Positions 5,511 through 61,489 of a stretch of DNA of 64,000 nt are shown in pieces. Each line of letters begins with the position of its first letter. Position 1 is the stretch's first letter. The DNA comes from Octopus vulgaris (taxonomy: Eukaryota): the NCBI GenBank assembly GCA_951406725.2, contig OX597827.1, positions 17,794,001 to 17,858,000 of the forward strand. Direction: 5' to 3'. The translations under genes and the position numbers were made by a program. A model generated the notes under the pieces. That model was not told the DNA's origin and searched no databases. It worked only from the letters and a program-made list of their open reading frames with translations.

Positions 5511-6051
5511 GTATGTGTGTGTGTGTGTGTAAGTATGTATATTCATAATAGTGTGTTGCAGAAAGCTAAACAAGCATGGTAGAGATATTTACCGAGTAGT
5601 GCCTAGATAAATGACAACTTAAATACAACCCCTTCATCCAGGCAGGCGTTTCCGGTGTTGAAAGTAGACTATCAGAGCGATCCTCGTTGAGCAGTTGTGG
5701 AATTCAGAACGCTAATGTACACAAGTATGTTTACAAGGACTACAAAATATAAATAAAGATTACAAAATAAGCAAAAGAGTTATGCAATCGCCTTATCTTG
5801 ACAGCTGTTTCGGGTGAAGGATGACTTATGTCAAACCTTCATTATAAATAAGGTCGTAGGTGTATGAAATAACGCCAGCTCATGGGTCCGTGAGGTAAAT
5901 TCATGTCACCTATACTTACATTCATGATGCATATTATATACATATATAAACATTATACTCATACACACACATACGCATACGTACATACAGTTAAAGAACG
6001 TAATCATTTAAGAACTTTGATATTACAATTTTTAAGCAGAAGAATAATATA

Positions 6052-50001: not shown

Positions 50002-50064
50002 CCACCTGATGAATGTCTGCTACTCAAAAATTTGATGACAGAAGACAGGAAACGATTGTAGTGG
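50002..50064 (+). ncRNA. Type I hammerhead ribozyme with extended stem II, followed by an AT-rich PLE-like tail
   Basis: CCAC-CTGATGA-ATGTCT...AGACAG-GAAA-CGATTG-TA-GTGG. The tail at 50095-50190 recurs inverted at ~54760-54855. Confidence 0.75.
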
Positions 50065-51728: not shown

Positions 51729-51805
51729 ATCGCATACCTCGGTTTCAACTATTAACAAAAGAATTACTTACATAATTCAAATGTCCGTAGTCTCGTCAGT
51801 GCGAT
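51729..51805 (-). ncRNA. Type I hammerhead with intact core and extended stem II
   Basis: ATCGCA-CTGACGA-GACTA...GAATTA-TGTAAG-TAATTC...TAGTT-GAAA-CCGAGG-TA-TGCGAT. Confidence 0.8.
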
Positions 51806-56422: not shown

Positions 56423-56460
<38 letters not shown>

Positions 56461-56627
56461 AAATTAGAAGATGGAGAAACATACTTAAATCAATCAAACA
56501 TCAACCATCAGATAATACCCAATCAATACTTTATTACACCATTACATAACAGCAAAGACATTATACAAAATATATTGTAAATATAATTAGACAAGGAAAT
56601 AGAAATATAAAATACAATTACATCATA

Positions 56628-56737
56628 TCTAACAGCTTTTTCGGCCGTAGGGACAAGTATGCCTCATTTAACCTATAAGCCATATAAGGCAGGTATAAAT
56701 GAGACATTAACAAGATGTCCCACGGCCTCTTCAGAGA
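56628..56737 (-). ncRNA. Hammerhead copy in the left arm, degenerate at stem III and cleavage site
   Basis: TCT-CTGAAGA-GGCCGTGGGACA...TGTCCCTACGGCC-GAAA-AAGCTG-TT-AGA. Confidence 0.7.
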
Positions 56738-57061
56738 ATTTAATTTAATATAAGTGTGAAAAGATTTTTACATATAAATATAAAAATATAAAATATAAAA
56801 ATGTGTGCATAGACACTCATAATACTACACATATATATATATATATACTCATTAATACAATAATACAAAATAAACAAAATATATCAATGTACATTAACAA
56901 ACACAGTTATTTTACATATTGGACTCCTAGTTCCATAACTAACATCAAGGAAAATATATGCACACTCACATTTAAATTTAAATCAGACATATATACATAA
57001 AAAAAAACACACAGTTCAGTTCATAAAATTATAACCCTACAAAAAGTCAATAAAAATTAAT

Positions 57062-57139
<78 letters not shown>

Positions 57140-60084
57140 CATGACTGTACCATGTACATCAAGCGGACATCTACATATCAATAAGTCTAATTCCTCTGTC
57201 CGCTTGATATTGATTATTCTAGATTGATTCGATTGCCTTATAGTTTTAAATTTGAATCACAAAGGAAATTTTACGGTTAGTTAGTCAAGAAACGCACATA
57301 CGCACACGCACATCCACAGATCCATCGCACATACATACAAAATTATATGTATACACACACACATACACTCATACACATACATAGCCACAAACACAGCCAA
57401 AAACATAAATAAATAAATAATATAAGAGGTATAATCGTAATTATGCAGCCATCAAGCCCCTCCAAAACGACAACAATGCCGTTGTATTAACTAAGAAGAT
57501 CCACTCACATATTTCCATAAAATATTTATTGTAAAGATACATATAATTATATCAAGACATAGAATGTAATTTTTCATAAGGTACATAATTCATATGACAC
57601 CGTATTTTCCGTAGCCATAGTATTTCATAACTAAACGTTTACTGACTTAACCGCTATATGTTATAATCAAACATACGTTAAATTATAAAGTATAGATTAA
57701 ACATTTCCATTTGACTATCAAAAGACAGAAATATACATATACTAAGTTGACATCGGTTTATAGCAATTAAATTATAAGAGATTAATTGTAAGAAGTCAAA
57801 ATACGCAAATATTCTAGGATATGTAAACAAACAAAACAAAACAAAATAATTCCTTATAGCATAAATAGATATCTCTACGTAATAAATCCAATGTTATTAT
57901 AATACTAATATTTATCTATCAAAACCCTTACCTACGAACTAATAGAATTACACTCACATATACATGCCCATAAATATACTCATGTGTAACAACAGACATA
58001 CACATACACACCATATATTTTCACATGTGACGTGCGTGTAAACTTTCATAGTACTTATATATAAATATACTTTTAAGCATCAGTGGACACATAAATACAA
58101 ATGTAATAATTAACAGGATTTGGCATTATATAATTTTGTAGCTACACATGTATATAAATATATATGTCCTGTATTAATTGTTTTTTGTTTATGTTTTTTT
58201 GTCTTGGTTTATAAGGGAAATACACTGCGGCAAGAAAGAATATATTCATTTTGGTATATGCACAGTAATATGATATTCTTGGAGTTTTCTAAAATTACAG
58301 AGTGTGTATGAATATCATAGTTAGATACCTGGTTTTAGATACTGTAATACTATTATGTAATATATGTGAGTCTATATTGGATTTTGTTTGTTTTGGTTGA
58401 GTATATGGGTTTTTGCAGGTTTTTTATTTGGCAGGCTTATATATTGTATATTTAGTGTATCTTTGTACTCACCTAAATTTGTATCTTATGCTATTTATTA
58501 ACAAACCTATTCATTTACTCACATTTGGCTTTATACATATTAGCAGTCTTATATATTTAGTCTATATTTGTACTCATCTTGATTTGTACATTGTGTTATT
58601 CATCTATTTATTTTTTTACTCATTATCTATAGGTAAAAGTTTACATAATAGTAGCCTGTATACTAAGTTTATATATGTACTTTCTTCAATATATATCTTC
58701 ACTTTATTTTATGTTATTTATTTACCTATATACTCTTTTATGCATATGTGGATATATGCATATTAGCATTACTATATATTAGGTGTACCTGTGTATTTAT
58801 CTGAATTTGTTTTCTATGGTATCTATCTATTTATTTAGTCATTCACTTATTTATTTAAATGTAGATATATACATACATATCAATTATTTATTTTAATAAT
58901 ATATGGATACATGTATACTAGTTTGTACTTATACTCTCTTTGTAATTTTAATTATTTCTTCTTATTTATTTTATCACATTTTAATCTTAAGTAATTACAA
59001 TTATTAACTTATAATTAATTTAATTTTTGTTATTTACTTATATACCATTTTATTGGTAAGTCCTCCACTGATATTATTTAATGCCAAATCCTGTTAATTA
59101 TTACATTTGTATCTATGTGTCCACTGATGCTTAAAAGTATATTTATATATAAGTACTATGAATGTTTACACGCACGTCACATGTGTAAATATACGGTGTG
59201 TATGTGTATGTCTGTTGTTACACATGAGTATTCTTATGGGCATGTATATGTGAGTGTAATTCTATTAGTTCGTAGGTTAGGTTTTTTGATGGATAAATAT
59301 TAGTATTATAATGGCATTGGATTTATTACGTAGAAATGATATCTATTTATGCTATAAAGAATCTTTTGTCTTGTTTTGTTTGTTTACATATCCTAGAATA
59401 TTTGCGTATTTTGACTTCTTGCAATTAATCTCTTATAATTTAATTACTATAAACCGATGTCAAGTTAGTATATGTATGTTTCTATGTCTTTTGATAGTCA
59501 AACAAAAATGTATAATCTATACTTTATAACTTAGCGTATATTTGATTATAACAAATTGCGGTGAAGTCAGTAAACGTTATGTTATGTAATACTATGGCTA
59601 CGGAAAATACGGTGTCATATGAATTGTGTACCTTATGAAAAATTACATTCTATGTCTTGATATAATTATATGTATCTTTACAATAAATATTTTATGGAAA
59701 TATGTGAGTGGATCTTCTTAGTTAATACAGCGGCATTGTTGTCGTTTTGGAGGGGCTTGATGGCTGCATAATTACGATTATACCTCTTATATTATTTATT
59801 TATTTATGTTTTTGGCTGTGTTTGTGGCTATGTATGTATGTATATGTATGAGTGTATGTGTGTGTGTATACATATAATTATGTATGTATGTGCGATGGAT
59901 CTGTGGATGTGCGTGTGCGTATGTGCGTTTCTTGACTAACTAACCGTAAAATTTCATTTGTGGTTCAAATTTAAAACTATAAGCCAATCGAAACAATCTA
60001 GAATAATCAATATCAATCGGACAGAGGAATTAGACTTATTGATATGTAGATGTCCGATTGATGTACTTGGTACAGTCATGGTTG

Positions 60085-60149
<65 letters not shown>

Positions 60150-60470
60150 AGTAATTTTTATTAACTAGGGTTATAATTTTATAAACTGAACTGTGTGTTT
60201 TTTTATTTTTTTATGTATATATGTCTGATTTAAATTTAAATGTGAGTGTGCATATATTTTCCTTGATGTTAGTTATGGAACTAGGAGTCCAATATGTAGA
60301 ATAACTGTGTTTGTTAATGTATATTGATATATTTTGTTTATTTTGTATTATTGTATTAATGAGTATATATATATATATGTGTAGTATTATGAGTGTCTAT
60401 GCACACATTTTTATATTTTATATTTTTATATTTATATGTAAAAAATTTTCACACTTATATTGAATTAAAT

Positions 60471-60581
60471 TCTCTGAAGAGGCCGTGGGACATCCTTGTT
60501 AATGTCTCATTTATACCTGCCTTATATGGCTTATAGGTTAAATGAGGCATACTTGTCCTCACGGCCGAAACAGCTGTCAGA
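60471..60581 (+). ncRNA. Type I hammerhead with intact core and ~86-nt stem II
   Basis: TCT-CTGAAGA-GGCCGTGGGACA..TGTCTCATTTA..TAAATGAGGCA..TGTCCTCACGGCC-GAAA-CAGCTG-TC-AGA; predicted cleavage after 60578. Confidence 0.85.
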
Positions 60582-60911
60582 TATGATATAATTATATATT
60601 ATATTTTATACTTTATATTTCTATTTCCTTGTCTAATTATATTTACAATATATTTTGTATAATGCCTTTGCTGTTATGTAATGGTGTAATAAAGTATTGA
60701 TTGGGTATTATCTGATGGTTGATGTTTGATTGATTTAAGTATGTTTCTCCATTTTCTAATTTTGTATATATATATATATATACATACATATATATATTAT
60801 CATTAATATATATATATATTATATATATTATATATATTATCATTAATTAAAATCTTAGAGTAGCAAGAATATTCATCGAAAAATTCTTAGTGTTTGAACG
60901 TACACTGTATT

Positions 60912-60953
<42 letters not shown>

Positions 60954-61053
60954 ACACATAAAGGGTGAAATATAATTAATTTAATAAAATTAATAAATTT
61001 CACCTAGTAGTTATTTGGATATGGAAATGACCATATTCGGTAAGGATTATGTA

Positions 61054-61334
61054 TAATTATAATAAAGGGTTAATTGCAACAAGTTGCTCAAAACCACATA
61101 CCGAAAATATTAGAAATAGCAACCAAATAGGTCACCATTACTACTACTAGAAAAATAAGTCTCCACAAACAAATAGAATTTGCAATCTTTACCATATACG
61201 GGTTACAAATTCTATTTGTTTGTGGAGTCTTATTTTTCTAGTAGTAGTAATGGTGACCTATTTGGCTGCTATTTCTAATATTTTCGGTATGTGGTTTTGA
61301 GCAACTTGTTGCAATTAACCCTTTATTATAATTA
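61054..61334. repeat. Near-perfect fold-back hairpin (~134-bp arms, ~13-nt loop) between (TA)n tracts
   Basis: 61054-61187 is the reverse complement of 61201-61334. Confidence 0.92.
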
Positions 61335-61336
61335 AA

Positions 61337-61418
<82 letters not shown>

Positions 61419-61419
61419 C

Positions 61420-61489
<70 letters not shown>

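Follow-up and report, generated by a model that had tools for sequence, protein, structure and literature searches.

A type I hammerhead motif with an 86-nt stem II in the pseudo-LTR of a probable Hydra-type Penelope-like retrotransposon of Octopus vulgaris

The window analysed here, a 64-kb stretch of the Octopus vulgaris genome (assembly GCA_951406725.2, contig OX597827.1, positions 17,794,001 to 17,858,000), carries on its plus strand a hammerhead motif within a truncated copy of a Penelope-like element (PLE). The features of the motif and of the surrounding copies are, in window coordinates, as follows.

60471..60581, plus strand: type I hammerhead with intact core and long stem II (sequence, RNAfold)
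60471..60473, plus strand: 5′ strand of stem I, UCU; the inner 2 bp alone are conserved between subfamilies
60474..60480, plus strand: 5′ box of the catalytic core, CUGAAGA (sequence)
60481..60566, plus strand: stem II, exactly 86 nt (RNAfold, pair counts)
60481-60487/60560-60566, plus strand: basal helix of stem II, GGCCGUG/CACGGCC (RNAfold)
60488-60492/60554-60558, plus strand: second helix of stem II, GGACA/UGUCC (RNAfold)
60493-60501, plus strand: 9-nt bulge of stem II (RNAfold)
60502-60513/60539-60550, plus strand: middle helix of stem II, 12 bp, AUGUCUCAUUUA/UAAAUGAGGCAU (RNAfold)
60515-60518/60535-60538, plus strand: helix ACCU/AGGU of stem II (RNAfold)
60519-60530, plus strand: apical 3-bp hairpin of stem II (RNAfold)
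60567-60570, plus strand: GAAA core box (sequence)
60567..60577, plus strand: GAA and the perfect palindrome ACAGCUGU (stem III; predicted 8-bp intermolecular helix in the dimer; duplex energy)
60578..60581, plus strand: C17 (60578) and 3′ strand of stem I, AGA (60579-60581) (sequence)
58127..60800, plus strand: 5′-truncated Hydra-type element copy with 3′ UTR and pseudo-LTR only, beginning about 100 nt past the ORF stop and ending in (TA)n
56459..58134, minus strand: inverted, shorter 5′-truncated partner copy, 93% identical, ending in (TA)n
56628..56737, minus strand: second hammerhead, in the inverted partner, with palindrome and cut-site base damaged

An initial annotation had described the motif from its letters as a hammerhead with a complete core, a 3-bp stem I, a stem III of the form C-AGCU-G and a multi-helix stem II of about 86 nt, and this description was borne out. 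The boxes CUGANGA, GAAA and NUH follow one another in order on the plus strand, together with stems I to III and an open stem I. The C-AGCU-G element forms the centre of a perfect 8-nt palindrome (60570-60577), and RNAfold reproduces the named helices of stem II together with an additional apical hairpin of 3 bp. Cleavage would presumably take place between 60578 and 60579, going by hammerhead numbering. The refolding that had been proposed as a check supports the long stem II, with a folding energy of -47.9 kcal/mol and a z of -5.47 (none of 200 shuffles was equally stable). The minus strand folds as well (z -4.42), which is expected for a hairpin. The second proposed check, scoring against the Rfam hammerhead models, failed: searching the whole window yielded no match at gathering score, and the best match to the motif, Hammerhead_3, reached an E of 0.75 and 15.7 bits against a gathering score of 48.5, with a 72-nt insert. 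This miss is a limit of the size of the model and not of the motif core. The motif also differs from the canonical metazoan type I form, which has a helix I of 6 bp, a helix II of 4 bp and a contact between loops 1 and 2, in that helix I comprises 2-3 bp and helix II 86 nt.

The motif belongs to a repeat with copies that share a fixed 3′ end but begin at different points, and it is located about 220 nt upstream of this 3′ end. In the window, a direct and an inverted copy are joined, both outer ends of the pair run into (TA)n, and a search of the 64 kb for an ORF remnant yielded none. The predicted sense-antisense duplex of the two hammerhead stretches amounts to -196 kcal/mol, compared with -46 and -39 kcal/mol for their own folds. 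The window copy is probably inert, since it lacks an ORF and, in a read-through RNA, would pair with its inverted partner. Directly downstream of the truncated copy, at 60914-61470, lies another, self-inverted element (79% over 565 nt) that is separate from it. Further hammerhead-like sequences in the window comprise a type I-like motif with core start at 51799 (minus strand; 6-bp stem I AUCGCA/UGCGAU, 46-nt stem II region, stem III ACC-GA-GGU), a motif with core start at 50006 (plus strand; 4-bp stem I, 36-nt stem II region, near-palindromic stem III) and a decayed long-arm hammerhead at 5770-5930 (minus strand), which ends in the same palindrome ACAGCUGU, has a damaged 5′ box and has 33 other matches at 71-92% identity.

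Exact matches in the 2.8-Gb assembly numbered 1,779 for the 3′ half of the motif and 1,383 for its 5′ half, with none for the controls, and the motif is therefore not a chance occurrence. In a listing of sequencing runs, parts of the stretch occur in 20 entries from 8 studies under four organism codes, with no RNA run among them, which gives no evidence on expression or on differences between species. In longer copies an RT ORF precedes an endonuclease region. Four of 12 regions picked for long frames (L069, L074, L075, and L077) contain units in which hammerheads flank the PLE ORF in the manner of a pseudo-LTR, with 5,573-5,604 nt between the cores; L069 has its cut site 519 nt upstream of the ATG and 2,236 nt downstream of the stop codon. 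More than one unit is present in tandem in L077. The protein P0001 contains RWR, DKT, YRDD, and CxCX5C (CNCRNKNKC), where RWR is a conservative change from the RWK motif of Hydra elements; the motifs align with homologues. Its frame shifts near the end, ahead of CxxC and CxH, and both motifs (CSLC, CIH) are intact in other natural copies such as L070 and L074, with L070 holding a frame of 955 codons that runs through them. A Pfam search of the element ORFs including P0001 returned no family, while the C-terminal endonuclease region aligns with P0107, a protein that matches Pfam GIY-YIG. Asn-rich insertions lengthen the ORF of P0001 at residues ~505-630 and 710-800.

The features given for the Hydra clade in PMC8557442 are RW(K/R), DKT, YRDD, CxCX5C, CxxC, CxH and a size generally under 3 kb. 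All of these motifs are found here, and insertion into (TA)n is seen at the window ends and at the end of L069; the unit of 5.6 kb has about twice the published size. The endonuclease region follows the RT, whereas in Naiad/Chlamys it is N-terminal to it. A protein search yielded 650 homologues at E <= 1e-20 among 4,696 candidates. In an RT tree of 34 rows, which is unrooted, has no outgroup and leaves out the published consensus proteins, the family and five other proteins (two named Argonauta) sit on a long branch, and this 7-row group is separated from 27 typical rows with support of 100/100. Shorter Asn-rich insertions occur in P0002, P0003, P0006, P0007, and P0008, which belong to this long-branch group; its named members come from Argonauta. 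Judged by its sequence, the element appears to be Hydra-type, placed inside or as sister to the Hydra clade. An identity as Nematis or Naiad was dropped on the Hydra features and on the supplement proteins of PMC8557442, and a non-LTR retrozyme was ruled out because the copies are dispersed and truncated forms of a 5.6-kb coding unit and not a 150-450-bp non-coding tandem repeat. Subfamilies differ in the motif. In the youngest and commonest, comprising L069 and related copies, the basal helix contains a C-U mismatch and stem I has 2 bp; another, represented by L042, L053/L054, and L073, has a CCGAAGA core in place of CUGAAGA at several loci, which implies that it spread with that change.

The initial annotation had further regarded the stem II as unusually large and as the possible mark of a distinct subclass, and of these two statements the first holds and the second is not supported. 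For comparison, 77 metagenome loci were retrieved with a Hydra alignment (from the best 80 of 458 matches), all belonging to the typical RT group and not to the long-branch group. A hammerhead was present in 64 of them, in each case with a stem II region of 10-25 nt, and a single additional weak match had 45 nt. The arm of the motif is therefore 3-8 times longer than in the relatives compared, and its 86 nt also lie outside the small size of dimer-type PLE hammerheads, in which helix II reaches ~8-11 bp. One of the metagenome loci (L260) has the same palindrome ACAGCUGU with a stem II of only 10 nt. An ordinary Hydra family in the octopus genome (L297-L326) likewise has a 10-nt stem II region, with 57 identical matches in 30 loci; many open frames of 727 codons were seen in it.

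Matches to core and palindrome in the genome were, by contrast, spread over all spacer lengths, with 2,422 at 5-34 nt, 2,333 at 35-59 nt, 2,368 at 60-90 nt, and 1,744 at 91-120 nt against 2, 0, 0, and 2 for the controls, where the 60-90-nt pattern had a tighter tail and nested matches may count twice. The fetched loci contained 171 distinct motifs with spacers of 55-125 nt, which fall into 45 clusters. Although neither stem I pairing nor the identity of position 17 had been imposed in this search, stem I of at least 2 bp was found in 28.0 of the 45 clusters compared with 15.8 after shuffling of partners, a value that none of 2,000 shuffles reached, and position 17 was other than G in 168 of the 171 motifs. 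Long arms are thus real, common and graded, with lengths running continuously from 21 to 120 nt across many unrelated sequences, and do not form a single discrete subclass. Arm relatives at 40 loci are tied to the element by shared pseudo-LTR sequence in 20 cases, and the Hydra matches near the 40 lie mostly on the opposite strand. For other long-arm families a link to an ORF was sought in 110 loci, of which four had Hydra-profile matches and only L110 and L168 had them placed as expected for a 3′ UTR. The 5.6-kb hammerhead pair of L179 was rejected as an element unit, being a duplicated segment without a Hydra ORF. Single loci deviate further: at L117:7900-8040 (plus strand) a 113-nt stem II contains a second CUGAUGA within a small hairpin, and at L078:8594-8668 (plus strand) a single copy has lost the distal stem II, with 50 nt left and an intact core.

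The annotation had also assigned the motif to the palindromic, dimer-type PLE hammerheads, and this kind is supported by the link to the element, the RT homologues and the predicted energies of monomer and duplex. In the fold model, the hammerhead conformation of the monomer has a probability of ~2e-6 and the stem III pairs one of <0.01. The palindrome is predicted to form an 8-bp duplex of -11.1 kcal/mol, and cofolding of two motifs gives -100.9 kcal/mol compared with 2 x -45.6 kcal/mol, a gain of 9.7. A short palindromic helix III that is predicted to be unstable in the monomer corresponds to the dimer type, and because a monomer hardly ever adopts the fold whereas pairing of two palindromes contributes about -11 kcal/mol, cleavage is likely, according to these models, to occur in the dimer only. 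Dimer activity has been reported for palindromic PLE hammerheads (PMC4209133, PMC6765202) and, according to PMC7229834, for such motifs in axolotl.

The copies themselves indicate which RNA was reverse transcribed. Insertions end ~208 or ~389 nt past the cut site (two sites; L068-L079, L327-L366), so that cleavage at the 3′ hammerhead would separate the RT start from the template unless the two were re-ligated. Forty ORF-linked copies were compared: 21 reach beyond the next cut site on its upstream side, 19 of these with the whole hammerhead kept, whereas the other 19 end at scattered points downstream of it; one of the 40 ends within 10 nt of the cut site, and there is no pile-up at this position. 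The 21 copies that run through the cut site imply a template longer than one unit with intact hammerheads, or a circle. Most long cDNAs were thus copied through an intact hammerhead. For the PLE PAc of Anolis, PMC11167929 describes uncut RNA as the main template and cutting by the hammerhead only in the presence of protein, and the map of cDNA ends obtained here matches these data.

Whether the fold of the arm is under selection was approached by several tests, with differing outcomes. Across lineages, the arm of 82-110 nt keeps a 5′-side bulge followed by a helix of 9-12 bp at 74% mean column identity, while the register of the distal helix shifts between subfamilies and the apical part varies in length and sequence. 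A set of 29 family variants, selected out of 46, has 95.6% of its cells paired. Four pairs change on both sides, all of them proximal, and this number of pairs is ordinary (217 of 500 shuffles); the 23 cells with changes on both sides were reached by none of 500 shuffles. In the basal helix, C14-G96 fails to pair in 13 of the 29 variants. When relatives with arms of 94-110 nt were included (37 rows), 11 of 27 pairs changed on both sides (105 of 500 shuffles) and 64 cells did so (none of 500), with slid controls far lower. The median fold z, from 35 sequences sampled per group, was -5.9 for the family, -3.3 for the relatives, -1.0 for other long families and -1.1 to +0.5 for flanks; long families outside the lineage thus fold no better than flanks (five of 35 at z <= -2).

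RNAalifold failed to return the extension from the plain alignment A4, and under an R-scape-like, tree-aware null no pair was significant, the best E over the structure pairs being 0.15 and the summed score being reached by 11 of 200 nulls. The branch test gave a different picture for the middle helix, in which pairing on internal branches was kept 13.5 and broken 5.9 times with 7.4 keeps expected (p 0.004), whereas on terminal branches it was kept 7.5 and broken 12.6 times with 7.5 expected, i.e., neutrally. Within the family, the extension was kept 6.9 times and broken 1.0 times (p 0.02), and the basal helix showed no excess of pair-keeping (p 0.42). These values have to be read with the fact that the structure was taken from the same sequences and the tree from the same columns, and that the column sets were chosen post hoc (five tried, p 0.004 to 0.42). 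Taken together, there is moderate evidence that arm pairing may have been favoured by selection on internal branches. The covariation among copies that had been put forward as a test accordingly reaches significance for no single pair under the tree-aware null, and what stands of the idea that the extension is kept paired is the internal-branch excess in the middle helix within the retrotransposing lineage.

The explanation we favour, with modest confidence, is that the motif is a type I hammerhead of a Hydra-type PLE pseudo-LTR which likely cuts only through paired ACAGCUGU, probably with the help of protein, and that the 86 nt of its stem II most likely represent an expansion that is tolerated, constrained in its folding and without a job of its own. 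A read-through transcript would carry two or more hammerheads. A lone hammerhead would stay uncut, so that the RT start sites 208 and 389 nt downstream remain on the template; alternatively, a cut-and-ligated circle with one hammerhead would be stable and could serve instead. Pairs of hammerheads would be cut occasionally and release unit-length RNA, with the element's own protein probably assisting. As stem II would point away from the core, its lengthening could be tolerated provided that it folds back on itself and keeps the basal helix next to A9/G12 closed, and changes that unpair the arm would misfold the core and be purged in master copies. In view of the stem I of 2-3 bp and the CCGAAGA core in one subfamily, activity may be very low or nil.

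A passive arm does not explain well why the length of 82-110 nt and the layout of bulge and helix are constant over diverged lineages. This persistence within the lineage keeps viable the alternative that the long stem II is a platform for the RT-endonuclease of the element or for a host dsRNA-binding protein, which would join two hammerheads or time cleavage and define a protein-gated subclass. We consider this alternative doubtful, although several further observations would suit it: the excess of pair-keeping falls on the middle helix, which is remote from the core, compensatory types occur at columns 34-94 (AU 25, GC 9, GU 3, unpaired 0), 32-96, and 18-104, the RT is one of a long-branch group that has Asn-rich inserts, and a PLE hammerhead is reported to require its protein in vitro (PMC11167929). 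Tolerated expansion is preferred over such a platform because arm length and sequence vary freely across families; the arms of other families are unrelated in sequence and of every length, no loop or bulge sequence is invariant, and the protein-binding region proposed in the same source lies near the RT start site, which here corresponds to a position 200-400 nt downstream. In its widest form, the idea would be that a divergent 5.6-kb Hydra-type branch uses an 80-110-nt arm, gripped by its own RT-endonuclease, to gate dimeric self-cleavage, and that present descriptors miss such ribozymes by the thousand, across dozens of families; we regard this as rather unlikely.

That the motif no longer cuts, with core, palindrome and arm being kept as an RNA or cDNA structure for transposition or simply carried along in young copies, would agree with the 2-bp stem I of the youngest subfamily, the CCGAAGA core at several loci, the lack of a pile-up of 5′ ends at the cut site and the unimpaired insertion of catalytic mutants described in PMC11167929. 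It is nevertheless improbable, given that stem I covaries across the 45 clusters and position 17 is almost always other than G, both of which are constraints of the cleavage chemistry. A direct contribution of the arm to dimerisation by kissing loops or arm-arm pairing, an aid to dimerisation having been suggested in the annotation, or a tertiary contact replacing that of loops 1 and 2, seems very improbable. Two arms can form an extended duplex (-88.0 compared with 2 x -41.7 kcal/mol), as can any hairpin, but apical self-pairing amounts to only -3.5 kcal/mol, the apical part is constant between subfamilies in neither length nor sequence, and neither the bulge nor the apical loop finds a partner in the 50 nt upstream (-0.5, -3.2). 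The arm had also been proposed to be a dsRNA module, and its examination as an editing module gave no support: A>G equals T>C on internal branches (28 and 32 in alignment A4, 6 and 10 in alignment A3), and an A-to-I editing imprint was rejected. Terminal branches show a small A>G excess (16-18, with T>C at 9-10). RT stalling at the arm was rejected as well, as three of 30 copies end there, i.e., 0.12 per 100 nt compared with 0.06-0.15 elsewhere, with ends taken from BLAST and therefore rough.

For further work, young copies with open ORFs are available in this family, and one palindrome occurs with stems II of 21 to 120 nt, a natural length series that would permit side-by-side testing of the need for a dimer, of the help of protein and of the function of the arm. 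It also reveals a blind spot, since ~6,400 exact-core matches with a stem II of at least 35 nt in one genome were missed by Rfam here, and these exceed the spacer lengths of the core-only search as described in PMC8557442. If the arm is passive, the consequence is a correction of the census and not new biology. The occurrence of dimer-type hammerheads in PLE pseudo-LTRs is already known. Added to this are the link between a long-arm hammerhead and an autonomous Hydra-type element that has open frames, the contrast with loci from other organisms, the test by branch type and the mapping of 5′ ends. A literature search found no account of long-stem-II (60-120-nt) hammerheads in animal PLEs, though such motifs may be in print, e.g., in the supplements of PMC4209133. 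The role of hammerheads in PLEs is described as still open (PMC8557442), and one hammerhead was reported to be protein-assisted and dispensable in vitro (PMC11167929).

With the Hydra PLE hammerheads described in PMC8557442, the motif shares the type I form, the pseudo-LTR position and a self-complementary stem III of the form AC...GU, and the elements share the ORF motifs, the (TA)n targets and the inverted 5′-truncated partner. Stem II differs, with 86 nt here and stems of 3-7 bp with loops of 3-10 nt in File S2 of that work, as do stem I (2-3 bp compared with 3-7 or more) and the element itself, which here measures 5.6 kb with an ORF of ~940 aa, a 3′ UTR of 2.2 kb and a long-branch RT, whereas Hydra elements are under 3 kb. 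The PLE hammerheads of PMC4209133 resemble the motif in the palindromic helix III, a helix I of very few base pairs (2 in D. virilis), the expected dimer activity, the mostly dispersed truncated copies and the opposite-strand pairs; a helix II called larger than usual there has 6-8 bp, compared with ~31 bp in four helices here. PAc (Poseidon) of Anolis (PMC11167929) likewise has two internal RT start sites that lead to two 3′ ends, and its uncut-RNA template fits the 5′-end map. It belongs to a different clade, its hammerhead overlaps the ORF start where that of the present element lies 519 nt upstream, and its tail is 30-40 bp whereas the 3′ ends here are 181 nt apart. Long helices II are tolerated in nature, as indicated by the minus strand of CChMVd (PMC3705267), and loops II of 29-35 nt are listed for spike-moss PLE-X hammerheads in File S2 of PMC8557442, the viroid and plant contexts both being unlike the present one. 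The metazoan non-LTR retrozymes, as presented in PMC7229834 and bioRxiv 10.64898/2026.07.22.740005, have in common with the motif the type I form, a palindromic helix III and dimer-enhanced cleavage, which is predicted here; they are non-coding tandem repeats of 150-450 bp with canonical helix sizes, whereas the octopus hammerhead belongs to a coding element of 5.6 kb.
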